Origin: an uncultured virus (IMG/VR IMGVR_UViG_2660237931_000002)
Taxonomy: Duplodnaviria; Heunggongvirae; Uroviricota; Caudoviricetes
DNA: 64,000 nucleotides
IMG/VR virus record: IMGVR_UViG_2660237931_000002
Span: 1-64,000 of that record
Direction: 5' to 3' (one strand)
Shown here piece after piece: positions 44,166 to 61,666 of this stretch. The position numbers and the translations under genes were made by a program. The notes beneath the pieces are model-generated. The model made no database searches. It worked only from the letters and a program-made list of their open reading frames with translations, and was not told the origin of the DNA. Every line of letters begins with the position of its first letter. Position 1 is the first letter of the stretch.

Positions 44166-44812
44166 TGGCAACCTATCCGAACGTCAATGCAGCGAACCAG
44201 TATGCGCGGGATATCGTTGGCGGGAAGATTCTGGCGTGTCAGTTAACGATACTTGCCTGTCAGCGACATCTGGACGACCTCGAACGAGCAAAGGATCCCC
44301 ACTGGCCCTACCGCTTCGATAAAAACAAAGCAGAACGATTTCTTCGTTTTGCCCAGAAAATGCCTCATACCTCAGGGGAATGGGCCCGGCGTAAACTCCG
44401 GATTGAATTTGAAGCCTGGCAGAAGTTCGCTCTTGGCGTACCGTTTGGATGGGTACACAAGAAGACAGGCCTGCGTCGTTTCTCTGAAATCTATATCGAG
44501 GTGCCCAGAAAGAACGGGAAATCCGCTATTGCCGCTGCTGTAGGAAATTATATGTTTTGTGCAGATGGCGAGCATGGTGCAGAAGTCTATTGCGGCGCCA
44601 CGACTGAAAAACAGGCATGGAAGGTATTTTCTCCGGCGCTGCAAATGGTGAAAAAGCTGCCGGCATTGCGGCAAAAATTCTCGATAAAACCCTGGGCAAA
44701 AAAAATGACGCGCCCTGACGGTTCGGTTTTTGCGCCTGTGATCGGTGACCCGGGGGATGGTGATTCGCCATCATGCGCCATCATTGATGAATATCACGAG
44801 CATACAACATAG
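44165..44812 (+). pseudogene. terL: Terminase large subunit, 5' part, cut at Walker B by satellite
   Basis: VPRKNGKS Walker [12 protein letters not shown] then TAG supplied by the satellite. Confidence 0.95.
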
Positions 44813-44926
44813 ACATTTCAGGGAGTCAGTAGTGTTCGCCATTGTACGTTAACATGATGAATAAAAAGATTTTTTATTGTTTTCATGTTCGGATGTGATC
44901 ACATGCGTTTTCCTTGTTACGGTTCA

Positions 44927-44949
44927 CTGTGTATTGCAGTGTGTATTGC
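44927..44949 (+). promoter_or_regulatory. Putative satellite integrase arm sites (left)
   Basis: CTGTGTATTGCAGTGTGTATTGC; near-identical copy at 61538. Confidence 0.75.
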
Positions 44950-44974
44950 TTTTGTGTTTGCAGAGAGTGAATAA

Positions 44975-46210
44975 ATGGCTGCGGAAAACAAACTTAGTGA
45001 CAGGCAACTAAAGGCGCTACAGGGTAAATCGCAGGATAAGCAGCGTCTGTTCTCCGATGGTCGGGGAATGTCGGTCAGGGTGAGTAAGAATGGTGCTGTG
45101 AGCTTTGTTATGTTCTACCGATTGGGCGGCAGGGAAACATCTCCGGTTTGGTTGACGTTGGGAAAGTACCCTGACATGTCATTGAAATTGGCTCGGGAAA
45201 AACGTGATGAATGCAGAACGTGGTTAGCGGAAGGGATTGACCCGCGTCACCGTATCGGCTTAATCACAGAAGAATCACAAAGACCGGTCACCGTAAAAGA
45301 TGCACTTAAGTATTGGCTGGAGTATTACGCCAAACCTAAGCGCAGAACTTGGGAGGTCTGCGAACAACGTTTTGCCCGTTATATTTATGGTCGCCTGGGT
45401 GACGTGCCCCTAACTCTTTGTAATGCAGCAATGTGGGTAAAGTGTTTTGATGAGGTGAGAAAAACCGCTCCAGTAGCTGCCGGGCATACATTTCGAGATG
45501 TGAAGCAGGCACTCAAGTTTTGCCGGGTACGCCGTTATGCTACTTCCAACGAACTGGAGGATTTCACCGTTATGGATATGGGTGAAAGGGCGAAAAAAAG
45601 GGATCGTGTACTTACTGCTGATGAAGTGCGGGACGTTTGGTATTGGGCAAATACTGAGGAAAATAATTCAAAATTATCTCCTGTTAACCGGGTGACGCTT
45701 GTCATTTTAATGGTATTTGGATGTCGCGGACGTGAATTGCGAGAGTCACTCTGGAATGAATGGGATTTTAAAGAGTGGATTTGGACAGTGCCCAAAGAAC
45801 ACAGTAAGAATGGGCGCGAAATTATCCGCCCAATCCCCCCGCAAATCCGTCAATGGCTGGTAAATCTTCGTGCAATTGCAGAGGAGGAGGGCACAGAGCG
45901 CCTACTTAATGGTGAATTTGCAAAACAGACAGTTATGAGCACCGTAGGTAGCCGTTTTTGGCGTAAGTTCCGGCATGAAAAATCATGGTGTCTGCATGAC
46001 CTTCGCCGGGTTCTTGCCACCAATCTAAATGACATGGGGGTTGATCCTCATGTTGTCGAACAGCTCTTGGGGCATACGCTACCGGGGGTTATGGGAATTT
46101 ATAATCGTAGCCAATATCTGGCGGCAAAACTTGATGCTTTGACGAGATGGGTAGACTACCTGAATTCGTTGATCCGTTCTGATGCTAAAGAGGGAAGTCC
46201 CAATGTATAA
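44975..46210 (+). CDS. int: Satellite tyrosine integrase (P4-like arm-binding domain)
   Basis: DGRGM..RV, LTLGKYPD.SL..AR, FGCRG.E, HDLRR, LLGH, Tyr in GIYNRS. Confidence 0.95.
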   Translation: MAAENKLSDRQLKALQGKSQDKQRLFSDGRGMSVRVSKNGAVSFVMFYRLGGRETSPVWLTLGKYPDMSLKLAREKRDECRTWLAEGIDPRHRIGLITEESQRPVTVKDALKYWLEYYAKPKRRTWEVCEQRFARYIYGRLGDVPLTLCNAAMWVKCFDEVRKTAPVAAGHTFRDVKQALKFCRVRRYATSNELEDFTVMDMGERAKKRDRVLTADEVRDVWYWANTEENNSKLSPVNRVTLVILMVFGCRGRELRESLWNEWDFKEWIWTVPKEHSKNGREIIRPIPPQIRQWLVNLRAIAEEEGTERLLNGEFAKQTVMSTVGSRFWRKFRHEKSWCLHDLRRVLATNLNDMGVDPHVVEQLLGHTLPGVMGIYNRSQYLAAKLDALTRWVDYLNSLIRSDAKEGSPNV

Positions 46211-46421
46211 ATTCATGAGTAAAGCAGAACTTGAACTGATACCAGATCTGGAACGCGTTATCCGAGAACCGGAATGTTTTTGGATGACTGGTCTGCCAAA
46301 ATCTACTCGTGCTTTTATGGAGAAAAAAGGACAGTTTCCAAAGCATCTGGTGCTGGGCCCTAAAATCTGTGCCTGGCGGCTTTCTGAAGTGCAAGAATGG
46401 ATAAAGACCAGAGCACAATAA
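46203..46421 (+). CDS. alpA: AlpA-family regulator/RDF 1
   Basis: RVIREPEC..TGL..ST....K.GQFPK...LG....AWRLSEV.EW. Confidence 0.88.
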   Translation: MYKFMSKAELELIPDLERVIREPECFWMTGLPKSTRAFMEKKGQFPKHLVLGPKICAWRLSEVQEWIKTRAQ

Positions 46422-46482
46422 ACTGACACTTTTCAAACCAGACCCGCTTATTCAGGCGGGTTTTTTTATAGGATTTTTGCTA

Positions 46483-46722
46483 ATGAAAAAATTTATTGAA
46501 CCAACCCCTGAGCAACGCCGGCAGTTACTGAACGAGTATGGTGTTCCATACGACCGTATTGTTCGTGAGAAAGAACGTCGTGATATCACCTCTCTATGTA
46601 GATCGTCAGCGTGGGAGATGGAGCAGAATGAGGCGTACCCGCAGCGACGTAAAATTGGTAAAGCGGGGGCAGGTTGGCTTCTCAGTGATCTGCTCCACTG
46701 GCTGAGAAACCTTGATAGGTAA
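46483..46722 (+). CDS. alpA: AlpA-family regulator/RDF 2
   Basis: DRIVREKE...ITSL.RS..W.ME....P.R..IG....GWLLSD. Confidence 0.85.
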   Translation: MKKFIEPTPEQRRQLLNEYGVPYDRIVREKERRDITSLCRSSAWEMEQNEAYPQRRKIGKAGAGWLLSDLLHWLRNLDR

Positions 46723-46787
46723 ACTTCAGGCATTACAACTTCACGCTACTTTAAGGGAAAGAGGCAATCCTCAAAACAAGATTAGCC

Positions 46788-47019
46788 ATGATCAAAAATT
46801 GTAGTTGTTGATAAAAATGGTCTCGAGTACATTCCTAACATTGACCGTATAATCCGTGAGAAAGAGTGTAGGGAACTCACTACTCTTGCGAACAGTACGC
46901 ACTGGAAGCTGGGGAGGGGAGGGAAGTTCCCTAAACGGATCAAGATCGGGGCTGCAGCAGGAGCTTATCGCCTCTCTGAAGTGCAGGCCTGGATTAGAGC
47001 AGATAACTGGATAAGTTGA
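46788..47019 (+). pseudogene. AlpA-family copy 3, frameshifted right after ATG
   Basis: ATG-A-TCA.. then SKIVVVDKNGLEYIPNIDRIIREKECRELTTL..FPKRIKIG..YRLSEVQAWI. Confidence 0.75.
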
Positions 47020-47033
47020 ATAAGGAGAATTTT

Positions 47034-47864
47034 ATGACGATGTGTGTTTTTTGGAAAGATAAAGATAATAATATTCATATAGCAACTGATTCTCGGCTAA
47101 ATAATGACTCATCGGCTCTCGATCATTGTTTGAAAATATCTAGACTTAATTGTGAAATACACGAGTGCAATGATATAAGTGGTGGTGATAAGGTTTTTAT
47201 AAAAAATATTAAGCTTGCCATTTCTTTCTGTGGCGGGTTTGTTAGTGCTTACACGATTAAAGAGAGTTTAACTGAAATACTAAATAAAATGGTCCTTGTT
47301 CCTGACTCGTCTAATATTTCAATGGATTTGATAACTGATGTGGCCTTGACGGTTTATGAGAAAGTAATAAGAGATGCAGTTCAATATTTTATCGGTAAAG
47401 TAGGAGCTTGTAATTTTTACATAGCTGGATTTTGTCCTATTTCTAATGAAGTAGAAATGTATAAGTTGGGTGTTAGAGAACATGATTCTCAGACAGGGTT
47501 TGATTGCTTCAAAGAAAAATGCTTCCAAGATACTGATTATATTATAGATGGCAGCGGTGCGGGTTTTTTAGAACAGACTGACTCATTAGATAATCATTAT
47601 CTTAAAGCGTATCGTATTAACAATCAAAAACCATTGCTAGATTTATTACTTTCTGTAATTGAAGATGAAGGTTGTGCTTCTGTTGGTGGGGCTATACAAT
47701 ACGCAAAATGTGAACATGATAATATCATTATACATGCAATGTATGATCATAAAAATGGCGCCGTGAGATATATGCGTGGTGGTGTTGATATTAATGAGTT
47801 AATTGGTGATTATGCTGCGCGTGGAGTGGTATTTGAAACAAATATGATTGGGAAATTAAGATAA
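47034..47864 (+). CDS. Proteasome beta-subunit/HslV-like Ntn threonine protease
   Basis: AAGGAG RBS, M-T start, DSR, Lys33 (mature numbering), GSG, SVGG. Confidence 0.75.
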   Translation: MTMCVFWKDKDNNIHIATDSRLNNDSSALDHCLKISRLNCEIHECNDISGGDKVFIKNIKLAISFCGGFVSAYTIKESLTEILNKMVLVPDSSNISMDLITDVALTVYEKVIRDAVQYFIGKVGACNFYIAGFCPISNEVEMYKLGVREHDSQTGFDCFKEKCFQDTDYIIDGSGAGFLEQTDSLDNHYLKAYRINNQKPLLDLLLSVIEDEGCASVGGAIQYAKCEHDNIIIHAMYDHKNGAVRYMRGGVDINELIGDYAARGVVFETNMIGKLR

Positions 47865-47865
47865 A

Positions 47866-48405
47866 ATGAAAGATATAGATGGTGTTCATAAACTTTTGGA
47901 GGTGATGAAACCTCACATGAGCAGTATTGAGAAACGTTTTGCAGAAATGAATGATATGTTTCTTGGTCTTATGAATCAACCTCACGATAATATTGGAAGG
48001 GTTTTGAAATGCCATCTTATAATTGAGCACTTTTTGACTGGTTTTCTGCATAATTATTATAAAATTGAAAGGCTTGATAATCTCAAGTTGCGTTTTGCTC
48101 AGAAAGTGGAAATTATCCCTAGAGCCGGTGAAAGTGCTTCTTTTGTTAGGCCGGGGATCATCCAATTAAATAAAATTAGAAACAAATTTAGCCATGACTT
48201 AAGTTCTAGCATCCAAAAACATGATATTTCTGCAATTTATGAAGTGCTAACTATAGCAAGAAGAAAAAGCACATTCGATGATCCGATAGAAGCAATAGAA
48301 GCATTCACACCAATTGCATGCGCTTTTCTTTCTTTACCGCCACCAGAGTTGCAAAAAGTTTTCATAGAGGCATTCACATCAATCTCAACCTACGATCCTG
48401 AATAA
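47866..48405 (+). CDS. HEPN-like (MtlR-type) protein
   Basis: HLIIE..L, F.QK, LNKIRNKFSH (R-x4-H). Confidence 0.7.
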   Translation: MKDIDGVHKLLEVMKPHMSSIEKRFAEMNDMFLGLMNQPHDNIGRVLKCHLIIEHFLTGFLHNYYKIERLDNLKLRFAQKVEIIPRAGESASFVRPGIIQLNKIRNKFSHDLSSSIQKHDISAIYEVLTIARRKSTFDDPIEAIEAFTPIACAFLSLPPPELQKVFIEAFTSISTYDPE

Positions 48406-48571
48406 TTCCTAAAATAGATAATTATCTATCTTTGTGCTCCCGGCAGTGTTACCAGCACTAGCCGGGTTTCTGATCAAACCGTTACTTGAGATAACAATTA
48501 CTGCTACTCAACAGTCTATCCACACTCACCCTCAATCATGCTGGTGGTTCATTAACATACGAACACTTGGA

Positions 48572-48877
48572 TTACTTTCTCTGGTGACGCTGCAATTGTT
48601 CTTTCGCTAGGGTGGTCATGGTCTGGGCATTACTGACTACTTGCTCTCCGATATCGCCAATGAGGGCCAGTGTTTCAAGTGCTTTGTTAAGAGTGAGTTG
48701 CACATTCTCGGGGCCGCTTGAAGCAGTCTGCCGTCTGGCTATTTCGCCACGTAAGGCAGAAACGATAAACCCGGCATTGCTTTCGCCATCCCGCTTAACT
48801 AACTCCATGCTTTCCATCACATCGTGTGGAATGCGCACTGTGGTCATTTGTGATTTTGCATTTTTATATACGGACAT
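48572..48877 (-). CDS. YlcI/YnfO-like ribbon-helix-helix regulator
   Basis: NAKSQ..TVRIPHDV......K.DGES..GFIV.A.RGEIARRQ. Confidence 0.78.
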   Translation of the reverse strand: MSVYKNAKSQMTTVRIPHDVMESMELVKRDGESNAGFIVSALRGEIARRQTASSGPENVQLTLNKALETLALIGDIGEQVVSNAQTMTTLAKEQLQRHQRK

Positions 48878-48899
48878 AGTGAATTACCTGATTGAATCG

Positions 48900-48996
48900 T
48901 GTATCTCACTATACATATAAATGAGATACAAAAAAACTTGAATTGTATCTCATGCAATATTATGGTGTATCTCACCAGGTGGTGTCCTGTATCTCA
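48900..48996. promoter_or_regulatory. Array of five TGTATCTCA boxes at exact 22-bp period
   Basis: Starts 48900, 48922 (inverted), 48944, 48966, 48988. Confidence 0.85.
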
Positions 48997-49087
48997 GTTT
49001 TTAGGCCACTTAGTAAAAACAGCGAAGCCCGGAAGTGCGCGAACACTAACCGGGCTTCTGACCAAACCGTTAGTTGAGGTAACAGAT

Positions 49088-49366
49088 ATGGCTGGTAAAC
49101 AGCATACCCAAACTCACCCCAAATTTACATGGCTATTCTTGGCTACCCGAGAAGCGTTTTCTGAATGTTCACCTGTAGTCCTCAGATGTGATGCAGATTC
49201 GGAGGAGGATGCTCGAGCAATCTTCCCTGAGTGGCATCTAACCTTTGCAGCAAAAATCCGTACTGAAAGTCCCTATTCGTATACTTGGACTGACAAAAAT
49301 CGAGCAACTCTCTGGTCAATTATGGGAGGCGAAATCAACCTTCCTCTGGAGGCTCGAAATGTCTAA
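49088..49366 (+). CDS. Icd-like host cell division inhibitor (P4/PICI ash region)
   Basis: QHTQTHPKFTWLF..A.SE..AR......L.FAAKIR. Confidence 0.75.
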   Translation: MAGKQHTQTHPKFTWLFLATREAFSECSPVVLRCDADSEEDARAIFPEWHLTFAAKIRTESPYSYTWTDKNRATLWSIMGGEINLPLEARNV

Positions 49367-49613: not shown

Positions 49614-49978
49614 TTAGCAACGTCAAATTCAATGAACTGGAAAAACGCTTTGATCTGCTGGTGGAGAAAGTCAACGTTCTTGAAGAAAAAGTAAGAGCGC
49701 TGACTGATAGTCAGGGCGGTGAAATCCCACCCGGTATGACTCCTGTCGCTACGCTGGCGGCTGAGTATGGCATTTCTACCAAAAAAGCGGAGGAACTGGC
49801 GAAAAATACGGGCGTTATGTTGGTTAAGCTGAAATCAGGAGGCTTTATTGTGCCTGATGAGAAATTCAGGGAAGCGGCCCGACTTGTTCTCCGTAGCGCA
49901 AAACGAAAATACGGTTCGGCCTACTGGTTTCATCCGCTGATGGGCAAATTCCAAATGAGCGGAGGGATCCCGAAGTGA
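49610..49978 (+). CDS. Hypothetical satellite protein upstream of primase
   Basis: GGAGG RBS, ATGA overlap, coiled-coil N-term. Confidence 0.7.
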   Translation: MISNVKFNELEKRFDLLVEKVNVLEEKVRALTDSQGGEIPPGMTPVATLAAEYGISTKKAEELAKNTGVMLVKLKSGGFIVPDEKFREAARLVLRSAKRKYGSAYWFHPLMGKFQMSGGIPK

Positions 49979-51777
49979 AAAATGCACCTAACGTAAAGGC
50001 GCTGCCGAAAGACAAGTTTACAGAAGCGATTATTTTCGCGGGTGCCGACGCGTGGAGTCATGCCAAAGGCTGGGAAGAGGGGTTAGGAAAGCAGATCGCG
50101 GAAGATACCACGCCTCCTGTTTATCTTGGCCCGCGGCAACTGGAGGAACTGGATAACCTGCGCATTATCGATGATGGCCGCCGAGCTGCACGGGTGTACC
50201 TAGCTGGCGATATCGAGACGTCGATGATTAGTGCCATTGGTGCCAAGCTGGCACAGGCTGGGGTACAGGAGGCAAAACTTTATAAGGGTATTCCCGATAC
50301 TCATCCGGAGGACTGGCGAGATCACCTTAATCGGATTAGGGAAGGGAAAAGCACAGTAGTAAATCTGCCAGTGACGAAAAGAGAACCAGCGCATGATGAA
50401 GTTAGCCCGGCTCTTAATCAGATGGGGGCCAGCCAGCGCGGGCAAGTGCTGCTGGCCCATTACGATGGAGACCTGGCTATTCATGCTGATTCGGACATGG
50501 TTCACCACTATAACGGTGTGATCTGGAATCCACTCCCGGATAAAGAGCTGCAACGGGCAATGGCGCAGATTTACATTGATGCTGAGGTAGCCTATTCGCA
50601 GAACGCCATCAAATCGGCGGTGGAAACCATGAAGCTGAGTCTGCCGGTGATGGGCGTAACAGCCCGCAACCTCATTGGCTTCAGCAACGGCGTATTTGAT
50701 ACCCGGACGGGGCAGTTCAGGGAGCACAGCAAAACCGACTGGTTGTTGATTGCCAGTGAACTGCCATTCAGTCCACCAGCTGAGGGGGAGACACTGGCCA
50801 GCCATGCGCCGAACTTCTGGAAGTGGTTACGCCGTTCCGTGGCCTACAACGACCGCAAAACAGACCGTGTGCTGGCGGCGCTATTTATGGTGCTGGCGAA
50901 CCGGTACGACTGGCAGCTGTTCCTTGAGGTTACGGGCCCCGGCGGTAGCGGTAAAAGCGTGATGTCTGAAATATGCACCATGCTGGCAGGCAGAGCCAAT
51001 ACTGTGGCCGCCAGTATGAAAAATCTGGAGGACGCGAGGGACAGGGCGCTGGTGGTCGGCTACTCACTGATCATCATGCCGGATATGACCCGTTACGCTG
51101 GTGATGGCGCCGGGATTAAGGCCATTACCGGCGGCGATAAGGTGTCAATCGACCCGAAACATAAAGCACCATATTCAACCCGTATTCCTGCTGTGGTACT
51201 GGCCGTAAACAACAACGCCATGACCTTCAGCGACCGCAGTGGGGGTATATCGCGCCGGCGAGTTATATTCAACTTTACGGAAGTTGTTCCGGAAAACGAG
51301 CGCGATACGATGCTGGCTGAAAAGATAGAAGGTGAGCTGGCCGTCATCATTCGCCACCTGCTGATCCGCTTTTCCAGTCAGGACGAAGCCAAACAGCTGC
51401 TGCATGAACAGCAGAAGTCAGAAGAGGCACTGGCTATCAAGCGTGAAGGTGATTCGCTGGTGGATTTCTGCGGTTATCTGATGGCGTCGGTAGTGTGTGA
51501 TGGGATGTTTATCGGCAATGCGGAGATTGTGCCATTCAGCCCGCGCAAATATCTGTATCACGCCTATCTGGCATACATGCGGGCCAATGGCCTGAGTAAG
51601 CCAGTCTCTCTGATGCGGTTTGGTACCGATATGCCAGGCGCAATGGCCGAGTACGGGAAGAAGTACGAAAAGCGGAAAACCAAGCACGGTATCAGGTCAA
51701 ACGTTACGCTACACGACGACTCAGACGACTGGATGCCGTCATGTAACAATAATTCTGAAAGTGCTGGGCTAGAGTAA
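49975..51777 (+). CDS. P4/D5-type primase-helicase (SF3)
   Basis: GFSNGVFD, GPGGSGKS, IKAITGGD, GISRRRVIF. Confidence 0.92.
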   Translation: MKNAPNVKALPKDKFTEAIIFAGADAWSHAKGWEEGLGKQIAEDTTPPVYLGPRQLEELDNLRIIDDGRRAARVYLAGDIETSMISAIGAKLAQAGVQEAKLYKGIPDTHPEDWRDHLNRIREGKSTVVNLPVTKREPAHDEVSPALNQMGASQRGQVLLAHYDGDLAIHADSDMVHHYNGVIWNPLPDKELQRAMAQIYIDAEVAYSQNAIKSAVETMKLSLPVMGVTARNLIGFSNGVFDTRTGQFREHSKTDWLLIASELPFSPPAEGETLASHAPNFWKWLRRSVAYNDRKTDRVLAALFMVLANRYDWQLFLEVTGPGGSGKSVMSEICTMLAGRANTVAASMKNLEDARDRALVVGYSLIIMPDMTRYAGDGAGIKAITGGDKVSIDPKHKAPYSTRIPAVVLAVNNNAMTFSDRSGGISRRRVIFNFTEVVPENERDTMLAEKIEGELAVIIRHLLIRFSSQDEAKQLLHEQQKSEEALAIKREGDSLVDFCGYLMASVVCDGMFIGNAEIVPFSPRKYLYHAYLAYMRANGLSKPVSLMRFGTDMPGAMAEYGKKYEKRKTKHGIRSNVTLHDDSDDWMPSCNNNSESAGLE

Positions 51778-51789
51778 AGTTATAGGTAA

Positions 51790-52020: not shown

Positions 52021-52061
52021 TTAAACATATATTTTAAATTTTAAAGCTTAGGAGTTGTGAC

Positions 52062-52340: not shown

Positions 52341-52466
52341 GTGAGAAAAGATTATAATAAAAAAAATTTTAAGGCAGGATGGCGTGGTTAATTATTTTTA
52401 AGATTAAATGTTTATTTAATATTTGACCGCGGTGGTGGATTGTTGTAAATAAAACTGAGGTGATTA

Positions 52467-53369: not shown

Positions 53370-53859
53370 GGTTGAGTTTTCTGGAGTGACTGATGCGCTT
53401 AATTTTTGTTTGATGGTGCATCAGTTAAGTGACTTTGTTTTAATAATGTTGTTGGGAAGGTTGCCTTCTGAAATAAATGTACGTTTTTTGCTGTTTGATT
53501 CAAGAGAAAAATTGCGGTGATGTATGAATTTATACTGTGATTTTTCAATATATTATTGAGATTTTTTCTTACCCCACTATCCTTATCGTTGATTTCGGGG
53601 TTTATAAAAGTCAATGATAGACTTCATTAATTGTAAATTATTTGTTCATTATCTTTCATTGCTGTTCATCATCAAATACGGTTATTTACTTCATTGTTTC
53701 AATGTTTATCTTAGGGAGTGGCACTCAGACGTGAGCCGCCGCTGGCCGTTTAACCAAACTGTGCGAGATAGCCGGAGAGAGTCCTAAATAGGTTAAATGG
53801 CCATTTTCTTTTCTGCGCTGGTTTCACGTCTCAACGTTAATTGTTACGGAAACCACTCC

Positions 53860-55026
53860 ATGAAGAAATTACTCGAATTACGCCAGCAAAAAGCTGCCCT
53901 CAAAACGCAGATGCGATCCATGCTGGAGAAAGCCGACAATGAAAAGCGCAGCCTGAATGATGAAGAGGGGAAACAGTTTGACGAACTTCGCGCCCGTGCT
54001 GATACGCTTGAAGTGGAAATTACCCGCCTTGAAGCCGTTGCCAACGATGAGCGCAATCTGCCTGGTACTTCCGTAGAAGGTGAGCCAGTAAACAACGACG
54101 AACTGCGGCACTACATCATGACCGGTGATACCCGTTCTCTCTCCACGCTGGTGCAGGCTGATGGCGGCTATACCGTTATCCCTGAACTGGATAAAGAGAT
54201 CATGCGGCAGTTGCAGGATGATAGCGTGATGCGATCTATCGCGACAGTGAAGACAACCAAAACCAACGAATACCAGAAGCTGGTATCTGTGGGCGGTGCT
54301 GCCGTTAAGCATGGGGCAGAAGGTGAAGCGCGTGCAGAAACTACCACACCGAGAATGGAACGTGTCGATATCAAACTCAGCCCGATCTATGCATACCCGA
54401 AAACCACTCAGGAGATCCTCGATTTTTCCGAGGTGGATATTCTGGGTTGGTTATCTTCTGAAATCTCCGACACCTTCAGCGCTACTGAAGAAAATGATTT
54501 TGTTAACGGCGATGGTGTGAAGAAGGCTAAAGGCTTTCTGGCTTATGACCGTGTGTCCACCAGCGATAAAACCCGCCCGTTCGGTACGCTGGAGAAAATG
54601 GAAACTGCTGCTGTTAACTCAGATGGTTTGATCGACCTGCTATACAAGCTGAAAGCAAAATACCGCAAGAACGCCGTATGGGTGATGAACTCGAATACTG
54701 CGGCCACGCTTCAGAAGCTGAAAAACGATAACGGGGACTATATCTGGCGCGATCGTCTGGTCGCTGACTCTCCTGATACGCTGCTGGGCCGTCCGGTTCA
54801 GTATCTGGAAACTATGCCCGATGCGGCTCCGGGAGAAGCATTTCTGGCGGTAGGCGATTTTAAGCGTGGTTACTTCATTGTCGATCACACCACAGGCGTG
54901 CGCACCCGTCCTGACAATATCACCGAACCGGGTTTCTACAAGGTGCATACCGATAAATACCTGGGCGGCGGCGTGGTGGACTCCTGCGCCATCAAGGTGC
55001 TTGAGCTTTCCGGCTCCGGTTCCTGA
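53860..55026 (+). CDS. Satellite major capsid protein (HK97 fold with delta domain)
   Basis: Coiled-coil N-term, DGGYTV.PE, GDG..K.KG, LLGRPV, GDFKRGY. Confidence 0.95.
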   Translation: MKKLLELRQQKAALKTQMRSMLEKADNEKRSLNDEEGKQFDELRARADTLEVEITRLEAVANDERNLPGTSVEGEPVNNDELRHYIMTGDTRSLSTLVQADGGYTVIPELDKEIMRQLQDDSVMRSIATVKTTKTNEYQKLVSVGGAAVKHGAEGEARAETTTPRMERVDIKLSPIYAYPKTTQEILDFSEVDILGWLSSEISDTFSATEENDFVNGDGVKKAKGFLAYDRVSTSDKTRPFGTLEKMETAAVNSDGLIDLLYKLKAKYRKNAVWVMNSNTAATLQKLKNDNGDYIWRDRLVADSPDTLLGRPVQYLETMPDAAPGEAFLAVGDFKRGYFIVDHTTGVRTRPDNITEPGFYKVHTDKYLGGGVVDSCAIKVLELSGSGS

Positions 55027-55076
55027 TCTGACGTTTAAGGGGCTTCGGCTCCTTTTGCCCTCTGTGGAGTCCAGTA

Positions 55077-55637
55077 ATGAAAACAATCGATTTTGAAATC
55101 CGAACCTCTGAGCTGAGCGCCAGCAACAAAAAGCTGGTGGGCTATGCCGTGCGCTGGAACAGCCTGTCAGAAGTTATCTGGGATGAGTTCCGCGAGCAGT
55201 TTGTACCGGGGGCGTTTAAAGACAGCCTGGCATCCGGTAGCGATGTGCGCGCACTGTACGAGCATAACTATACCCAACTGCTGGGGCGCACTAAATCCGG
55301 CACGCTGGTGCTGTCCGAGGACGATACCGGGCTGCGCTTTGAGCTTACCCCACCGAATACCCAGCTTGGGAATGATGTGCTGGAGCTGGTGGAACGTGGG
55401 GATATTTCCGGCATGAGTTTTGGTTTCCGTGCGCTGAAAGAGGCATGGGATATCGGCCAGTCTCCGTACCTCCGTACTGTAATAGCTGCCGACCTGCGGG
55501 AAATCACAGTTACGTCTATGCCTGCTTATCCTGAATCTGGTGTGGAAATCGCGCACCGTTCGCTTTTCTCCCAACATCCTGAACTGCGTCGCGCTGGCGA
55601 TAACCGTCGCCGCTGGGCTGAATTAGCGGGGCTTTGA
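55077..55637 (+). CDS. Prohead protease (HK97 family)
   Basis: GYA, F.E.F.PGAF, LYEHN, GMSFGF, EIT.T..PAYP. Confidence 0.93.
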   Translation: MKTIDFEIRTSELSASNKKLVGYAVRWNSLSEVIWDEFREQFVPGAFKDSLASGSDVRALYEHNYTQLLGRTKSGTLVLSEDDTGLRFELTPPNTQLGNDVLELVERGDISGMSFGFRALKEAWDIGQSPYLRTVIAADLREITVTSMPAYPESGVEIAHRSLFSQHPELRRAGDNRRRWAELAGL

Positions 55638-55638
55638 T

Positions 55639-56874
55639 ATGTGGAATATCTGGCCGTTTGGCCGTAAGTCTGAACCCTCCGAGCAGCGCAGCATGACCAT
55701 TGATGAGTTTCTGGCGATGGCAGGGATTCCAAATACCGTATCAGGCGAGTACGTGTCTGCGGGTACTGCGGAATCTCTGCCGGCGGTGATGAATGCTGTT
55801 TCCGTTATCAGTGAAGCTGTGGCGACAATGCCCTGTTACCTCTATCGGGTACGAAATGATAAAGGACGAGAGGCGCGGGAGTGGCTGAGCAATCACCCGG
55901 TGGATTTTCTCCTGAACGAACAGCCTAACGACTGCCAGACGCCTTACCAGTTTAAACGCACGATGATGCGCCACTGCCTGCTGAATGGTAACGCCTATGC
56001 GGTGATCCAGTGGGGCCGTGACGGCCAGCCGCAATCCCTGCATCCGTATGCGCCGGGGGCGGTTGTTCCCGAACGTATTGGCCAGCATAAGTACAAATAC
56101 ACCGTTACTGAACCGTTTACGGGGGCTGTGCACACCTACTTGCAGGAAGAGATGCTGCACCTGCGTTACTCCACCGACGATGGCTTTCTGGGGCGTTCGC
56201 CGATCACCGTCTGCCGTGAGGCGTTGGGGCTGGGCCTCGCTCAGCAGCGCCACGGTGCCAGCATTATGAAAGATGGCATGATGGCGGCTGGCGTGGTCAC
56301 TACTGCTGAATGGCTCGACAGCTTAAAGGGCAAACAAGCTCTGGACGCACTGGAACGCTACAAAGGTGCCAGAAACGCCGGGAAAACGCCGATCCTTGAA
56401 GGTGGCATGGACTATAAGCAGCTTGGCATGAGCAATCAGGATGCTGAGTGGCTGGCCTCCCGTCGCTTCACCATTGAAGATATTGCCCGCATGTTTAACG
56501 TTTCTCCTATCTTTCTGCAGGAATACAGCAACAGCACCTACAGCAATTTTAGTGAGGCGAGCCGCGCCTTTCTTACCATGACAATGCGCCCGTGGCTGGC
56601 GAACTTTGAGCAGCAGATTAAATCCGCGTTGCTGGTGGCATCGCCTGTACCCGGAATCCGTTATCAGGTGGAGTTCGACTCTGCCGATCTTCTTCGAGCC
56701 ACTCCAACCGAACGTTACGCAACTTATGAGCGCGGTATCAAGAACGGGATCATGAACCCGAACGAAGCCCGCGAACGGGAAGGGATGCCACCGCGTGAAG
56801 GTGGCGACGAATACAGTCAGGCATGGAAGCAGGAAGTGAAGGTCAGTAAGGACAACAAGGACGGTGACGAATGA
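55639..56874 (+). CDS. Portal protein (HK97 family)
   Basis: LL..QPN..QT...F, LNGNAY, G.SP, IARMFNV, NPNEARERE. Confidence 0.95.
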   Translation: MWNIWPFGRKSEPSEQRSMTIDEFLAMAGIPNTVSGEYVSAGTAESLPAVMNAVSVISEAVATMPCYLYRVRNDKGREAREWLSNHPVDFLLNEQPNDCQTPYQFKRTMMRHCLLNGNAYAVIQWGRDGQPQSLHPYAPGAVVPERIGQHKYKYTVTEPFTGAVHTYLQEEMLHLRYSTDDGFLGRSPITVCREALGLGLAQQRHGASIMKDGMMAAGVVTTAEWLDSLKGKQALDALERYKGARNAGKTPILEGGMDYKQLGMSNQDAEWLASRRFTIEDIARMFNVSPIFLQEYSNSTYSNFSEASRAFLTMTMRPWLANFEQQIKSALLVASPVPGIRYQVEFDSADLLRATPTERYATYERGIKNGIMNPNEAREREGMPPREGGDEYSQAWKQEVKVSKDNKDGDE

Positions 56875-57209
56875 GAGCCGGAAAGATGAAACGCCGCGTC
56901 ACTTTTCAGAAGTCAGAATCTCACCGTGATCAGATGGGGCAGGTTATCTCTGTGTGGTCTGACCTTGCCACCGTCTGGGCTGAAATCCGCGCTATAAGTG
57001 GGCGTGAGCGTATGTCTTCAGGGGGGCTCTACTCCGAAGCCACTGTACGAATCTGGACGCGCTACCGCGACGATATCACCACCGCAAACCGCATTTTGTA
57101 CCGCTCGCCAAATGTCCGGGGGCAGGTTTACGGCATTGTGGCCGTCATTCCTGATGTGGATCACACCCGGCTTGAGCTGCTGTGCAAGGGAGGCATTTTC
57201 AATGAATGA
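56871..57209 (+). CDS. Head closure / tail adaptor
   Basis: MRAGKM.RRVTFQ, VWAEIRAISGRE. Confidence 0.9.
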   Translation: MRAGKMKRRVTFQKSESHRDQMGQVISVWSDLATVWAEIRAISGRERMSSGGLYSEATVRIWTRYRDDITTANRILYRSPNVRGQVYGIVAVIPDVDHTRLELLCKGGIFNE

Positions 57210-57495
57210 GTTAATTGGTCTGGAAGAAGCAAAGCTGCATTGCCGTATTGATGATGATTATGAAGACACGCTGATACAGGCGTACATCGATGCGGCGCTG
57301 GAGGTTTGCCAGAAGCATATCGGCAAGCGGTTTGATAACGGGCTGGAGTTTACGCCAGCTATCAAGATTGGCTGTCTGATGTACGTATCTCAGTTGTACG
57401 AGTACCGCACGATGATTGGTGATACTGACGCCAAAGAGATACCGATGGCTGTCTCTGCGTTGTGGTCTGTCTATCGTGATGTGGGGGTGTACTGA
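57202..57495 (+). CDS. Head-tail connector
   Basis: LEEAKLHCRID...ED.LI..YI.AA, LYEYR. Confidence 0.9.
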   Translation: MNELIGLEEAKLHCRIDDDYEDTLIQAYIDAALEVCQKHIGKRFDNGLEFTPAIKIGCLMYVSQLYEYRTMIGDTDAKEIPMAVSALWSVYRDVGVY

Positions 57496-57938
57496 TGCCG
57501 TGGCAACCACTACACCGATGCACTGAGCCGGGATGTAATAAAAGGGTGAAGTCTGGCAAGTGTGACGAGCATAAGCGGGATGCCCGCCGACAAAGCGACA
57601 GCCGAAGAGGTACGCGAACAGAGCGTGGTTACTCCAACCGCTGGGGCGAATACCGTCGTCATTTTCTGAAAGCTAATCCGCTGTGTGTCCATTGTCTTAA
57701 GGCTGACGTCTATACATCGGCAACTATCGTCGATCACATCATCCCTATCGAGGGTGAAGCCGATGTGCTGTTCTGGCCTGCCAGTAATCACCAGTCGTTA
57801 TGTGCTGCCTGTCATGGACGGAAGACAACCACAACAGACCCGGTGACGAAGCAGCAGCGTAAAGCCGGTAAGTTCCGTGAGCAGGAAGAAGCAGCATGTC
57901 ATCGCACCGACTGGATCTATGAGGCAAACAATGACTGA
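57495..57938 (+). CDS. HNH endonuclease (packaging)
   Basis: RGYS.RW, PLCVHC, VDHIIP, NHQSLC..CH..KT. Confidence 0.92.
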   Translation: MPWQPLHRCTEPGCNKRVKSGKCDEHKRDARRQSDSRRGTRTERGYSNRWGEYRRHFLKANPLCVHCLKADVYTSATIVDHIIPIEGEADVLFWPASNHQSLCAACHGRKTTTTDPVTKQQRKAGKFREQEEAACHRTDWIYEANND

Positions 57939-58083
57939 GCAGGAACAGCAGCGGCTGATTAGTGGGCTGATAAAGCAGCGTGAGTCATGGCAACCAGCCA
58001 GACAGAGGGCGTTTAAGAAGCCCGCAGCAAAGCGCATGAGCCCGCGTGACCGGGAGCTTATGGAATGCTTTCGCAACCGCTGA
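57931..58083 (+). CDS. Small hypothetical protein
   Basis: GAGG RBS, 50 aa between HNH and cos. Confidence 0.55.
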   Translation: MTEQEQQRLISGLIKQRESWQPARQRAFKKPAAKRMSPRDRELMECFRNR

Positions 58084-58094
58084 CAGGCCGAATG

Positions 58095-58180
58095 GACGGG
58101 GTGGGGGAGGTTTTCAGGACAAGCCCCTCTCAGCGAGGAACCACCTGCCCCCTCAAATTTTTGCGCTCGGTAATTTTTTT
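58095..58180 (+). other. Probable satellite cos region
   Basis: GGGGTGGGGGAGG run followed by T-rich tracts just before terS; differs from helper cos. Confidence 0.55.
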
Positions 58181-58213
58181 GAAAATAAATCGCGATGGAA
58201 ACGAGAAATTTTT

Positions 58214-58570
58214 ATGGCAAGACCACCAAAACCGCCAGCTTACCTTGATGAGCTAGCCGCGCAGCAGTGGAAAGCAAAGGCGAAGCAACTGGCGGAGCGC
58301 GGGGATCTGACTCCCGCCGACTGGAATAACCTTGAGCTTTTTTGCGTCAACTATTCGTTGTACCGCAAAGCCGTGGAAGACCTTGCCAGCCGTGGGTTCA
58401 GCATTATTAACAGCCAGGGCGGCGAGAGCCGGAATCCGGCGCTGAGTGCAAAGGCCGATGCTGAAAAAATCATGATTAAAATGTCGTCGCTGCTGGGCTT
58501 TGATCCGGTAAGCCGCCGTCGTAACCCTGTAGAAATGGAAGAGGAAGACGAGCTTGACCGTCTGGGATGA
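58214..58570 (+). CDS. terS: Satellite terminase small subunit (P27 family)
   Basis: PKPPAYL...A..QW, NPAL, LGFDPVSR. Confidence 0.92.
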   Translation: MARPPKPPAYLDELAAQQWKAKAKQLAERGDLTPADWNNLELFCVNYSLYRKAVEDLASRGFSIINSQGGESRNPALSAKADAEKIMIKMSSLLGFDPVSRRRNPVEMEEEDELDRLG

Positions 58571-60215
58571 GTACGCAAACGCGATAAAAACGGGCGAAAT
58601 TCCGGCCTGTAAGCGCGTAAAACAGGCCGTGGAAAGGTACTTTTCAGACCTGAGTGACCCCCGTTATGAGTTCGATACGGCGACCGTAGAGCGGTTTATT
58701 GCGTTCTCCCGGCTCTGTCCTCACGTCAAAGGACCGCTGCGCGGCCAGCCTATTGAACTGGAGCCGTGGCAACAATTTGCCTTTGCTAACCTGCTGGGAT
58801 TTAAAGTCAGGGAATCAGGCCGCCGGAAGTACAGCAGCGCCTTTATTGAAGTGCCGCGCAAGAATGCCAAATCTACCGTAGCCGCCATGCTGGCTAACTG
58901 GTTTCTGGTAATGGAGAAGGGCCAGCAGGATATCTATACGGCGGCGGTAAGCCGGGATCAGGCCCGTATTGTGTTCGACGATGCCCGTCAGATGTGCCTG
59001 CTGTCAAAACCGCTGAAAAAGCGCGTCAGTATTCAGGCGCACAAGGTCATTTACCCAAAGAGCAACAGCCTGTTAAAGCCGCTGGCGGCAAAAGCGGCCA
59101 CCATTGAAGGGACTAACCCCAGCCTGGCGATTGTCGATGAGTACCACCTTCACCCGGATAACGGCGTTTATTCCGCGCTTGAGCTGGGTATGGGCGCACG
59201 ACCGGAGGCGATTTTGTTCGCTATTACGACCGCCGGAAGTAATGTTGTCTCAGCCTGCAAACAGCATTATGACTACTGCTGCCAGATTCTGGCCGGGGAT
59301 GAGAGTAACGATTCGCTGTTTGTACTGATCTACGAGCTGGACGACGAAAGCGAGGTTGAGCAGCCTGAAATGTGGATCAAGGCTAACCCTAACCTTGATG
59401 TGTCCGTTGACGCGGCGAAACTGGAGTCCACCATCCAGAAAGCGCGGGGCATACCGTCGCAGTGGGTGGAAATGCTGACCAAACGTTTCAATATCTGGTG
59501 TCAGGGCTCCACTCCGTGGATGGGTGCCGGTGCATGGGACGCCTGTGCGCTCGACTATACCGAAGAAGATCTTGCAGGGATGGAGTGCTACGCAGGATTT
59601 GACCTGTCCTCAACCAGCGATATCACCAGCGTGAGCTACGCTTTCCCGTTCGACAGGGAGATCTGCCTGCTGACCCGCCATTATCTGCCGGAAGCGCAGT
59701 TGCTTAACGTCGCCAACAAAAACCGCGCTATCTACCGCCAGTGGGTGAAAGCGGGCTGGATACGCACCACACCCGGCGACTGTATCGACTATGACCGCAT
59801 TCGTGACGATATCCTGTGCGATGCTGAAATCTTCAATATCAGGCTGGTGGGCTTCGATACCTGGAACGCCACGCATCTGCGTACTCAGCTTCAGGGAGCA
59901 GGTCTCGATGTGGAGCCGTTTCCTCAAACCTATCTCAAGTTCAGCCCGGTAGCGAAATCCTTTGAGGTATTCGTCAACCGCAGGGTTGTGCGTCATCGTG
60001 GCGATCCTGTTCTCTCCTGGGCAATGGGTAATGTGGTTATGGAGTCTGACGCCAACGCCAATATCAAGCCTAACAAGAAGAAATCCGCTAACAAGATCGA
60101 CCCTGCTGTATCAGCGTTGATGGCGTTCGGTACTTTCCAGTCTGAGCACGAATATTTTGCTTTTGATATGAGTGACAGTCACAAAGAACGATTGGCGACA
60201 TTTAATGGTATTTGA
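58554..60215 (+). CDS. terL: Satellite terminase large subunit
   Basis: VPRKNAKST, AIVDEYH, ITTAG, GFDLS..SD, KIDPAV. Confidence 0.95.
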   Translation: MTVWDEYANAIKTGEIPACKRVKQAVERYFSDLSDPRYEFDTATVERFIAFSRLCPHVKGPLRGQPIELEPWQQFAFANLLGFKVRESGRRKYSSAFIEVPRKNAKSTVAAMLANWFLVMEKGQQDIYTAAVSRDQARIVFDDARQMCLLSKPLKKRVSIQAHKVIYPKSNSLLKPLAAKAATIEGTNPSLAIVDEYHLHPDNGVYSALELGMGARPEAILFAITTAGSNVVSACKQHYDYCCQILAGDESNDSLFVLIYELDDESEVEQPEMWIKANPNLDVSVDAAKLESTIQKARGIPSQWVEMLTKRFNIWCQGSTPWMGAGAWDACALDYTEEDLAGMECYAGFDLSSTSDITSVSYAFPFDREICLLTRHYLPEAQLLNVANKNRAIYRQWVKAGWIRTTPGDCIDYDRIRDDILCDAEIFNIRLVGFDTWNATHLRTQLQGAGLDVEPFPQTYLKFSPVAKSFEVFVNRRVVRHRGDPVLSWAMGNVVMESDANANIKPNKKKSANKIDPAVSALMAFGTFQSEHEYFAFDMSDSHKERLATFNGI

Positions 60216-60252
60216 GTATCGTTGCTGCTTATAAAACATAGTTCGGAAGTAA

Positions 60253-61320
60253 TTAAAAACGCTTAACTATTTGCATGTCTCTATGTATGTTTATCAATTT
60301 TGATGGGAAGGGGTAAAGAAAGTCCCTTCCAACAAATCCTATTAATGCTGTACATACTTCATTATAAATTACCTTTTTATTACTAGCTATGAATCCTTGA
60401 GCATAGATAGGGCCATAGCCTGGTGATAGCGAAGTTGTGAGTATGTTATCACCTTGCCTTTTTATTTGAGTAAAAAAACAATGTTTATCGGAAAATAAAG
60501 ATAGTTCATTATGCCCAAATGTAACCACTTGGAATTCTATGTCATATGGGTAATTTAATTCTTGGTGTATGAATAGTTGCTCCTTTAAATAAGGGATTGC
60601 TCGATATAAATGTAATAACTCTAGGCTAATGTTTGCATTGGTACCGTTTAACATATAACCGCCACCAGGCGAGATTATTGTTGTGCCATCATTTAGAGTG
60701 ATGAATGCATTTAAATGTTTTGTTCTTAAATTGTACCTTTCTTCGGGAGAGTATTTTTTACTTGCTGTAGCGTTTTTTATTATATATTTATCAAGTAGGT
60801 GTGGCCACTCGTCATATATAAGCTGAAGAAGGTTTTCATCTAAAAAAACCAAGTTTTTCTCTCCGTGTTTGTGACCAAATATTCCAAGTATATAGATATC
60901 ATTCTCATCAACTTTAGCAAATGCAATATTTTTTGTTCTTGTTATGTATCTTTTATGCTTTCCAGTGCCTTGAGGGTTTTCACCTAAGTGAAAGTGATGT
61001 AATCCAAAGTCATTTAGAAAGCCGTCATTAAAGTCTATTCTTTCCAGGTGATGGCTTTGGTAACTATTTATGTTTATGCCTGCTTGCATCTTATGAATTA
61101 ATGCAAAAAAGCCCTTAGTGTTATTTGACGGTATCTTTAATGTACTGTGCAAATGAACATTTCTTTTTTTAGGAGGTATAATTCGTATGGACATATTGAG
61201 CAGTAATTCTAAATAGTTTGATTCTCCATGCTTAGGCAGTTTGAATCCGGCATCTAAAAGAGTTTTTTTACAAATCGCATCTATTGATTGTCTAAAGTTA
61301 ATGCGTATGTTGTTTATCAT
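60253..61320 (-). CDS. AT-rich cargo protein, possibly toxin-like nuclease
   Basis: 355 aa, DGFLNDFGLHHFHLG..RT....F......IYILGIF.H motif; family call tentative. Confidence 0.7.
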   Translation of the reverse strand: MINNIRINFRQSIDAICKKTLLDAGFKLPKHGESNYLELLLNMSIRIIPPKKRNVHLHSTLKIPSNNTKGFFALIHKMQAGININSYQSHHLERIDFNDGFLNDFGLHHFHLGENPQGTGKHKRYITRTKNIAFAKVDENDIYILGIFGHKHGEKNLVFLDENLLQLIYDEWPHLLDKYIIKNATASKKYSPEERYNLRTKHLNAFITLNDGTTIISPGGGYMLNGTNANISLELLHLYRAIPYLKEQLFIHQELNYPYDIEFQVVTFGHNELSLFSDKHCFFTQIKRQGDNILTTSLSPGYGPIYAQGFIASNKKVIYNEVCTALIGFVGRDFLYPFPSKLINIHRDMQIVKRF

Positions 61321-61537
61321 GATATAGAGTCCCTCTTAATTATAACCGTTAGATAATTATTGTTGCTGCCTCTTTAACTCATTCTAAATGAGTGTATGGA
61401 AATTTTATAGCACTTAGCTCACATGATTTTACAGCTTTTTAAAGGGTATCTATTGCTACTGTCTAGCCCAATAGACACATGGCCATGAATGAGGGGTGTC
61501 TGTAATGGTGCGGTTAACAGACTAGTAAGTCTTACTT

Positions 61538-61560
61538 CTGTGTATTGCTGTGTGTATTGC
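61538..61560 (+). promoter_or_regulatory. Putative satellite integrase arm sites (right)
   Basis: CTGTGTATTGCTGTGTGTATTGC, 22/23 match to 44927-44949. Confidence 0.75.
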
Positions 61561-61666
61561 ACAAAGGACAAAACAAAGAGCTTGAATGAAATTCTTCCCT
61601 TTTTAATCAATGGATTAAAAATGCTTGCAATAAATATCACGAACATACTACTGATGCGCTTTACAC

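Follow-up and report, generated by a model that had tools for sequence, protein, structure and literature searches.

A satellite in the terL gene of an icd-integrated lambdoid prophage is very probably an HE-PICI with the gene set of a cf-PICI

Satellites that interrupt the terminase gene of a prophage were catalogued in 2023 by Tommasini, Mageeney and Williams (PMC10111431), who describe HE-PICIs of 14-17 kb at a site named A:Terminase_1:132, mostly in Klebsiella prophages at icd. The supplement of that paper (Supp File 1) gives the group the att identity block aatatcacga, which is printed in 12 of 15 HE-PICI rows among the matches listed, the other three being Salmonella rows with a different block; all 16 published helpers among the matches listed are at icd. 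The HE-PICI attP is described there with a doubled tgTGTATTGCa motif on either side of its centre, at 81 ± 2 nt on the upstream and 132 ± 2 nt on the downstream side. For these elements the same paper already proposes that the late gene stays disrupted until they excise, that they are co-replicated passively, and that late transcription reads through. The founding HE-PICI, 11capE in prophage 50icd, interrupts a late gene of its host prophage at icd and has on board a homolog of that gene, in which core mismatches should prevent self-integration; it is 11 kb long, lies in the capsid gene, has no terS and is presumably packaged by the helper machinery (PMC10111431).

A second class of satellite, the cf-PICIs represented by EcCIEDL933 and KpCIDSM30104, combines int, alpA and rep with capsid, protease, portal, connectors, HNH, TerS and TerL in about 15 kb that, as the two preprints describe it, holds no tail genes (10.1101/2022.09.08.507074, Alqurainy et al.; 10.1101/2025.02.11.637232). 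According to these sources the head and packaging modules are of low similarity to those of any phage, the elements sit at chromosomal attB sites, six of them in E. coli, and capsid formation and tail piracy are proven by experiment. The later preprint adds that cargo varies at spots on both sides of the packaging operon, and that inducing and tail-donating phages can be different (10.1101/2025.02.11.637232). Small capsids of their own proteins, packaging of their own DNA only, the use of helper tails, and induction by way of alpA, which a helper phage activates, are further marks of the class.

The window analysed here, a stretch of 64,000 nucleotides, contains a 16,843-bp element (44790-61632) that splits a prophage terL after codon 215, and this element is very probably an HE-PICI with the gene set of a cf-PICI, residing in an icd-integrated lambdoid prophage of Klebsiella type. 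The N part of the helper terL (44165-44812, plus strand) comprises 215 codons and ends at a TAG (44810-44812) that is borne by the satellite; its product is identical at 215 of 215 residues to residues 1-215 of the intact 573-aa TerL of Klebsiella phage ST846-OXA48phi9.1, and its residues 85-213 match positions 2-134 of the 178 in the Pfam TerL_ATPase profile. The C part (62997..64000 and on to G000 position 64068, plus strand; placed by alignment to intact TerL) is identical to residues 219-573 of the same protein at 354 of 355 positions, and a short piece between attR and an insertion sequence (61633..61666, plus strand) is identical to intact terL in its DNA. The N and C parts were aligned to the 573-aa TerL separately, without joining, and their alignments therefore make the helper terL collinear with an intact homolog, which the initial annotation had set as a check on its reading.

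The borders of the element are exact. The attL identity block AATATCACGA (44790-44799, plus strand), which marks the crossover region, is the Att Identity printed for the Klebsiella A_Terminase_1_132 HE-PICIs, and the same 10-nt block recurs at attR (61633-61642, plus strand) at a spacing of 16,843 bp. The split falls at codons 212-215 of terL, codon 212 corresponding to about position 133 of the TerL_ATPase profile, and int, alpA and primase lie on the terL strand. An insertion in the Walker B codons had been claimed: the core does lie just past AIIDE, which we take to be the Walker B motif of the helper TerL, but the crossover lies 2-3 codons past its Asp-Glu. Given that attP provides no replacement sequence for terL, the helper TerL ends at 215 residues and is without the remainder of the ATPase domain and the entire nuclease domain. 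The satellite's own terL differs from the core AATATCACGA at 4 of 10 positions. Doubled TGTATTGC motifs lie at 44930..44949 (plus strand), 132 nt downstream of the att centre at 44798 (published, 132 ± 2), and at 61541..61560 (plus strand), 81 nt upstream of the att centre at 61641 (published, 81 ± 2). These two doubled copies account for the only four occurrences of TGTATTGC in 64 kb, and given the counts and the spacing at fixed distances from the att centres, the arrangement is far beyond chance.

Comparison with other genomes indicates that this position is the usual one. The integrase has eight relatives in IMG/VR, 94-100% identical, and the attL of all eight is the same down to the satellite-borne TAG, which makes this place in terL the regular target of the integrase. 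The TGTATTGC motif is 132 or 133 nt from the att centre at each of these attL loci, and at the five attR loci of relatives it is found exactly at 81 nt in three and, with one or two letters changed, in the same place in two. In all five relatives that were examined further the C part of terL is uninterrupted downstream (99, 99, 99, 76 and 54% identity), and the helpers of two relatives (L003 and L010) have almost no DNA in common with the present helper. The whole composite recurs in two runs of other studies with 13 differences, of which 11 fall in 1.1 kb of helper DNA and 2 in the 16.8 kb of the satellite. An empty site, with 44789 joined exactly to 61633, was found in a contig from a run of another strain (X17). 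This is an RNA-library run in which most of the satellite is without contig cover, and as the covered parts are 90-95% alike, its contigs derive from a related element in another strain and are not evidence of expression of the present one. A scan of genome contigs with the satellite integrase returned no relative; a single-protein scan of this kind reaches close relatives only and is silent on distribution.

Integrase and alpA come first in the element, followed by the variable zone with an Icd-like gene, then by primase and iterons, and then by the head and packaging genes; this order corresponds to the four HE-PICI zones (Integration, Bro, Replication and Late) as seen from gene order rather than from Bro-network domains. 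All genes are on the plus strand except the last. The tyrosine integrase (44975..46210; Pfam Arm-DNA-bind_3 and Phage_integrase, phrog_1) overlaps alpA (46182..46421; excisionase/regulator, Pfam Phage_AlpA, E 7.6e-12), 3' of which stands a terminator-like hairpin (46440-46463), the sole strong hairpin in scans around attL and attR. Two low-GC genes of the variable zone (47016..48405; phrog_16034 and phrog_5483, function unknown; GC 0.33-0.35) precede an Icd-like cell-division inhibitor or repressor-like gene (48899..49366; NCBIfam NF033153, E 5.3e-15, phrog_1743) and a D5-type primase-helicase (49975..51777; phrog_864, E 1e-162; Pfam D5_N, DUF5906 and Pox_D5). After the primase gene an iteron cluster (51789-52022), with four direct copies of AGTATTCACC and four of its complement GTGAACACTT, is the putative satellite origin.

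The head and packaging module comprises eight genes, all of them open frames that each pass the Pfam cut-off: a major capsid protein of the HK97 fold family (53797..55026; Phage_capsid, E 1.4e-65), a prohead protease (55077..55637; Peptidase_S78, E 5.8e-47), a portal (55639..56874; Phage_portal, E 8.1e-96), a head closure or head completion protein (56871..57209; Phage_HCP, phrog_25), a gp6-like head-tail connector (56998..57495; Phage_connect_1, phrog_40), an HNH endonuclease (57495..57938; phrog_144, E 1.2e-37), a P27-family TerS (58046..58570; Terminase_4, E 6.4e-24) and an intact TerL of 553 aa (58554..60215; TerL_ATPase and TerL_nuclease). Since the connector match spans only residues 68-164 of its ORF, translation probably begins near 57200; the annotation of the E. 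coli homolog gives it 97 aa. No tail or lysis PHROG match was obtained among the ORFs of at least 50 aa in 44813-61632. A low-GC cargo gene (60253..61320, minus strand; GC about 0.34), a PD-T4-7-like defence candidate (PADLOC PDLC04066, E 3.6e-33), closes the element, where group profiles among the matches listed instead have Mrr_cat, AAA_15.2, DUF3892 and others (PMC10111431).

The initial annotation of a split terL, with an element of this length carrying int, alpA, primase, iterons and a head and packaging module but no tail genes, integrated site-specifically and co-oriented in a lambdoid prophage, is thus borne out by the att blocks, the gene strands and the profile matches. To the A:Terminase_1:132 group the likeness extends to the target gene and codon, the aatatcacga block, the doubled TGTATTGC at 81 and 132 nt, an orientation that follows the late operon, a length of 16-17 kb, the profile from Int to TerL_nuclease, the icd helper and the Klebsiella-type host, and nothing essential differs, the present helper terL having in addition an IS903-family unit. 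The element disrupts a late gene of the prophage, in which it lies in the same orientation; it is assigned to the HE-PICI clade by its att features and its genes, and the integrase comparison behind this assignment is that with the fis-PICI. With cf-PICIs it shares the int/alpA/primase core, its own head and packaging set, the lack of tail and lysis genes and, in its low-GC islands, the variable cargo spots; this comparison with EcCIEDL933 and KpCIDSM30104 is by published gene list and not by direct sequence. Unlike the described cf-PICIs it sits inside a prophage late gene, and capsid formation and tail piracy are predicted for it from its genes. Like 11capE it occupies a late gene of a prophage at icd and has a homolog of that gene whose core mismatches should prevent self-integration; in contrast to 11capE it brings all of its packaging genes and breaks the helper terminase. 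A PICI at fis in E. coli (NZ_CP067265.1, 3417445-3433228) has the same backbone: its genes run in the same order between the Icd-like gene, the primase and TerL, its cargo is likewise encoded on the other strand, its DNA is 88.5% identical over primase to terL and its TerL is 96% identical to that of the satellite; its integrase, however, is merely 49% identical and targets the end of chromosomal fis, which is left undisrupted. The satellite TerL is 30-36% identical to the helper TerL, and its head and packaging proteins as a whole are merely 30-36% identical to those of the helper or give no match.

The helper, prophage B, carries an icd fragment (18170..18193, plus strand) that matches the icd att identity string of published icd helpers at 23 of 24 nt (0 matches in 100 shuffles) and lies beside an outward-pointing integrase (18437..19564, minus strand; phrog_7244, E 1.5e-107). 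Its packaging set of HNH endonuclease (39936..40337, plus strand; phrog_144, E 1.7e-40), TerS (43731..44165, plus strand; phrog_83, E 5.8e-34) and TerL is interrupted twice beyond the satellite itself. Between HNH and terS is an IS66-family insertion (40859..43294, plus strand, ends approximate; tnpA, tnpB and tnpC; phrog_1013, phrog_623 and phrog_688), a stretch that is missing from all three alignable related helpers, whose flanks align at 92-98%. In terL itself, 25 nt past the att block, is an IS903-family (IS5 family) unit (61667-62996, minus strand; transposase phrog_2262, E 3.4e-149) that consists of a full copy and a 278-nt inverted partial copy, has 99% matches on Klebsiella plasmids and is flanked by a 9-bp duplication, GCTTTACAC (61658-61666 and 62997-63005). 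As this unit also breaks terL, excision of the satellite cannot restore packaging in this copy, and the earlier proposal that excision acts as a switch for helper packaging has to be withdrawn for it. Packaging is thus lost for good to the embedding prophage, which can at most contribute induction, replication, late transcription and lysis, and perhaps tails. In relatives free of the insertion, excision would re-form terL, so that helper packaging would be delayed and not abolished.

The tyrosine integrase of the satellite recombined the 10-nt core, in the terL codons just past AIIDE, with the same core in attP. For what follows, the published 11capE/61icd experiments and the work on cf-PICIs suggest this course. 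Upon SOS induction the whole composite would leave icd and replicate, carrying the satellite passively. Q-dependent late transcription would run through terS and what is left of terL on into int and alpA, which have the same orientation, and the satellite would excise. It could then replicate from its own primase and iterons, make small HK97-type heads, fill them by its own HNH, TerS and TerL, and take tails from a co-resident or neighbouring phage. Scans for promoters and terminators around attL and attR found about as many as chance would give (5, with 3.8 and 4.0 expected) and speak neither for nor against late read-through from the helper into the satellite int, which is therefore put no higher than plausible. 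The idea of a late-gene target and of co-replication with the helper is already proposed in PMC10111431 and is not novel, the site group being in the supplement of that paper.

Given the two insertion sequences, it is possible, though on balance doubtful, that the helper is decaying, with IS903 in terL and IS66 before terS, and that the satellite is an abandoned one, mere cargo that relies on other phages such as the tandem neighbour, prophage A, or incoming phages. Both insertions are in the packaging region and are absent from the relatives in which these places could be compared. The satellite head-closure protein is 40% identical to its counterpart in prophage A, and tblastn against the embedding prophage gave no match; that the embedding prophage donates the tails, as first suggested, is unsupported as stated and unproven. 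Many HE-PICI helpers look truncated and are discussed as 'potentially abandoned HE-PICIs' (PMC10111431), and a division between inducer and tail donor would be in keeping with cf-PICI work (10.1101/2025.02.11.637232). However, the remaining helper genes, from cI/cro/cII, O/P and Q through lysis to portal and tail, were seen open and in order, every ORF of the satellite and both att sites are intact, and a satellite of cf-PICI type can do without the helper terL. Moreover, Q-modified transcription could pass insertion sequences. The present satellite-helper pair may be an evolutionary dead end, with terL staying broken after excision and IS66 in the late operon.

That the element is instead what remains of another prophage inside the first, its head module left and its tail and lysis genes deleted, is highly improbable: the eight head and packaging genes are of phage type and share PHROG families with the helper, but the front end of int, alpA, primase and iterons is a PICI signature, the tail-less set recurs with a fixed length of some 14-17 kb, both among the published elements and at the fis site of E. 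coli, the borders are exact att sites, and modules of this kind are described as little like those of any phage (cf-PICI preprint). Least credible is a one-off, off-target insertion by a normally chromosomal integrase, the outcome named beforehand as fatal to the initial annotation: 28 off-target cases are reported for HE-PICI integrases (PMC10111431) and elements with a closely related backbone occupy fis in E. coli, but the fis-site integrase is only 49% identical and this reading is already refuted by the identical terL position of all eight relatives, in different helpers with TerL C parts down to 54% identical, and by the published group with the same att block.

An HE-PICI with a cf-PICI gene set is thus the preferred reading, and it is already known in kind: the element is a well-preserved example of a satellite type whose arrangement, site and gene set were catalogued in 2023 (PMC10111431), and the present copy is a clean, fully mapped case of the published terminase-site group. 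The small additions made here, the cf-PICI label and the frozen composite, leave the picture of the field unchanged and are useful mainly for annotating such DNA correctly: the 93-kb contig comes out of provirus callers as a single virus but is made up of the tail end of a first prophage, another prophage at icd, the satellite nested in the latter, and two insertion sequences. A link between terL embedding and cf-PICI nature was not found in the HE-PICI or cf-PICI papers, as far as the literature was searched. A broader proposal, which we regard as unlikely, would have the terL-embedded HE-PICIs as a group form capsids and disable the one helper function that they replace, with truncation or later IS fixation leaving a packaging-dead tail, lysis and replication factory that serves the satellite only, a step toward a domesticated donor. 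As the gene set of the group is of cf-PICI type, the helper function that is interrupted is one that the satellite does not need. In helper-embedded satellites a phage parasite can control its helper in cis, with a late gene held hostage, and an IS that inserts later can freeze a composite of this kind.

The terL gene of the helper, the lambdoid prophage at icd (prophage B) that hosts the satellite, starts at 44165 and ends prematurely at a TAG (44810-44812), as the satellite side of attL contributes GAG CAT ACA ACA TAG. A 10-nt block, AATATCACGA, is common to both junctions (44790-44799 and 61633-61642), and the spacing of 16,843 bp agrees with the initial annotation, which had placed an element of this length between two parts of terL. 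Alignment with the uninterrupted terL of Klebsiella phage ST846-OXA48phi9.1 identified attL as phage DNA up to the block and satellite DNA beyond it, and attR as the reverse. The N and C parts of the helper TerL were aligned separately, not joined, to an intact TerL of 573 aa: residues 1-215 agree with the N part at 215/215 positions and residues 219-573 with the C part at 354/355. The short piece to the right of attR, in which helper phage DNA extends only to 61666 before an IS903-family unit begins, codes for the three residues missing between them. The helper terL is therefore collinear with its intact homolog, as had been predicted for a protein of about 570 aa. Codon 212 of the helper terL lies at approximately position 133 of the current Pfam TerL_ATPase profile and, as the sequence shows, the helper TerL is cut after the Walker A and Walker B region, with attP replacing nothing of the part that is lost.

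One alternative would be that the terL position is a one-off secondary insertion. This is ruled out by a scan of IMG/VR with the satellite integrase, which found eight loci at 94-100% identity: all eight share this attL with its satellite-borne TAG, and the phage side of attL varies among them at synonymous positions. A closer look was limited to the five proviruses with a full 10-kb flank on both sides of the integrase locus; in 5/5, an uninterrupted C part of terL is found 15-16 kb further downstream, past the satellite's own terL, with 99, 99, 99, 76 and 54% identity to that of this helper. Three of the helpers are 92-98% like prophage B and two have almost no DNA in common with it. The terL position is thus the normal site of this integrase, in helpers whose TerL C parts are as little as 54% identical. 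The satellites are mosaics: in the present one, the integrase end most resembles that of L003 and L010, and the head module that of L004-L009 (all IMG/VR relatives by integrase). The whole stretch of 43700-61666 is also present in one contig in two public runs from other studies, with 13 differences, 11 in 1.1 kb of the helper and two in the satellite. In an RNA-library run (X17), a contig from another strain has 44789 immediately next to 61633, an empty site; the uninterrupted form of terL therefore exists, which is not evidence of excision here. Contigs of X17 over 54935-59157 have head and terminase genes 90-95% like those of the satellite, in addition to the empty terL site, and in this strain a related element seems to be elsewhere or excised, with the helper-type terL uninterrupted.

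The gene content of the satellite was called by PHROG, Pfam, PADLOC and NCBIfam searches and by a repeat scan between the att blocks. A tyrosine integrase with an arm-binding domain (44975-46210) is followed by alpA with a strong hairpin after it, low-GC genes to which the families assign no function, an Icd-like gene, a D5-type primase-helicase and, directly after the latter, eight 10-nt iterons (51789-52022). Two more genes without known function precede the head and packaging genes, in the order major capsid protein, S78 protease, portal, head-closure protein, gp6-like connector, HNH, P27-type TerS and a 553-aa TerL; none of the ORFs between the att blocks matches a tail or lysis family. 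These searches bear out each component read initially from the DNA (int, alpA, primase, ori, a full head and packaging module and no tail). This gene list is the one that defines the capsid-forming PICI (cf-PICI) family in a preprint (10.1101/2022.09.08.507074). At the 3' end lies a cargo gene of 355 aa on the minus strand (60253-61320; GC about 0.34). It is similar to the defence candidate PD-T4-7 by PADLOC (E 3.6e-33) and matches nothing in Pfam, PHROG or NCBIfam; published relatives have other cargo at the same spot, for example Mrr_cat, AAA_15.2 and DUF3892 (PMC10111431). The head-closure gene of the satellite lies before the gp6-like connector gene (56871-57495), whereas in the helper and in prophage A, the left neighbour, the connector or adaptor comes first; the same reversed order is present in published profiles of helper-embedded PICIs (HE-PICIs; PMC10111431). 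Separately, the last 95 residues of the integrase align with positions 713-807 of phrog_9 (terminase large subunit; E 3.5e-07), which suggests that this profile includes terL-integrase read-through or mis-joined sequences from such composites.

The supplement of PMC10111431 lists a group, A_Terminase_1_132, in which 12 of the 15 HE-PICI rows among those listed describe 16-kb elements of Klebsiella pneumoniae whose 'Att Identity' is aatatcacga, identical to the block of the satellite; the remaining three are Salmonella elements with a different att block. All 16 helpers among the rows listed are prophages at icd. The same paper describes a doubled motif, tgTGTATTGCantgTGTATTGCa, that is confined to HE-PICIs and flanks the attP centre at 81 +/- 2 nt upstream and 132 +/- 2 nt downstream. 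Within the window, TGTATTGC occurs only four times, as two doubled copies exactly 81 and 132 nt from the att centre (61641/44798). The satellite thus has all of the defining features of A_Terminase_1_132 that were tested, these being att features and gene content. An E. coli element at the fis site has the same backbone but is chromosomal: from primase to terL its DNA is 88.5% identical, and its TerL 96%, whereas its integrase is only 49% identical to that of the satellite.

The parent record is a single provirus-type contig of 93,166 bases, of which the window is the first 64,000, and its layout was drawn from PHROG and Pfam scans. Although reported as one virus, it holds parts of two prophages, the satellite and two IS elements. 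Prophage A (1-18200) is the tail end of a different siphovirus-type prophage, running from connector to tail fibre over 1 to about 15.5 kb, with fragments of invertase, integrase and UmuD-like genes to its right. It adjoins an icd fragment (18170-18193) that matches the icd att string of published helpers at 23/24 nt (0 matches in 100 shuffles), so prophages A and B look like a tandem at icd, an arrangement recorded for one published helper (PMC10111431). Prophage B, from 18437 on, comprises an outward-pointing integrase, cI/cro/cII, O/P-type replication genes, a ProA gene on the other strand, Q, holin/endolysin/spanin, HNH, an IS66-family element, terS and terL; to the right of the window follow portal, S49 protease, capsid, connectors, tail genes and a very large J-like protein. 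The ProA gene (25516-31440, minus strand; 1974 aa), between the replication genes and Q, reaches 2223.6 bits with the NCBIfam model 'anti-phage protein ProA' (cut-off 1500), also matches PADLOC PDC-S37, and has DUF4011, SF1 helicase, MTES_1575 nuclease and DUF3320 domains.

By analogy with the 2023 induction experiments on 61icd/11capE (PMC10111431) and with work on cf-PICIs, the composite of helper and satellite would excise from icd and replicate, late transcription would run into int and alpA, and the satellite would then excise, replicate from its own origin, fill its own small heads and gain tails. The satellite's own terL differs at 4/10 core positions, as published 11capE likewise differs from its own target (PMC10111431), and its head and packaging proteins either share 30-36% identity with those of the helper or are undetectably related to them. 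The inducer and the tail donor can be different phages (10.1101/2025.02.11.637232), and either prophage B or prophage A may be the donor here. The connectors of the two belong to the same PHROG families; the head-closure protein of the satellite is 40% identical to that of prophage A and has no match to that of prophage B.

It had further been proposed that excision of the satellite acts as a switch for helper packaging. The IS903-family unit (61667-62996) starts 25 nt beyond the att block, and an IS66-family element (tnpA, tnpB, tnpC; 40859-43294) lies between the helper HNH and terS, a 2.4-kb stretch that is missing in the three helpers 92-98% similar to prophage B. Excision therefore cannot restore helper packaging here, terL remaining split by one element with the other before terS, and the switch cannot operate in this copy, in which prophage B at most serves the satellite. 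The IS903-family unit is itself unusual: after a full copy comes a 278-nt inverted partial copy of the opposite end of the element, which gives the unit the same terminus on either side. A single 9-bp duplication, GCTTTACAC, brackets all 1,330 bp, as if they had transposed together. In a source-like run the contig stops 27 nt beyond 61666, where the IS begins, and those of the other two runs extend 23 kb further, which suggests, although it does not prove, that the latter do not have the unit.

The arrangement, the site, the att architecture, the gene profile and the cis-regulatory idea are all in print, and the proposal in the initial annotation is accordingly not novel in these respects. An explicit statement that the A_Terminase_1_132 site group is capsid-forming was not found in print, and no paper among the literature matches listed uses both 'cf-PICI' and 'HE-PICI'. 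Six chromosomal attB sites are given for cf-PICIs in 10.1101/2022.09.08.507074, the text of which does not contain 'within a prophage', and 'embedded' is absent from the text of 10.1101/2025.02.11.637232; the supplement of either may list prophage sites. The capsid-forming label for the terL-site group is, in summary, a small interpretive addition and not a discovery.
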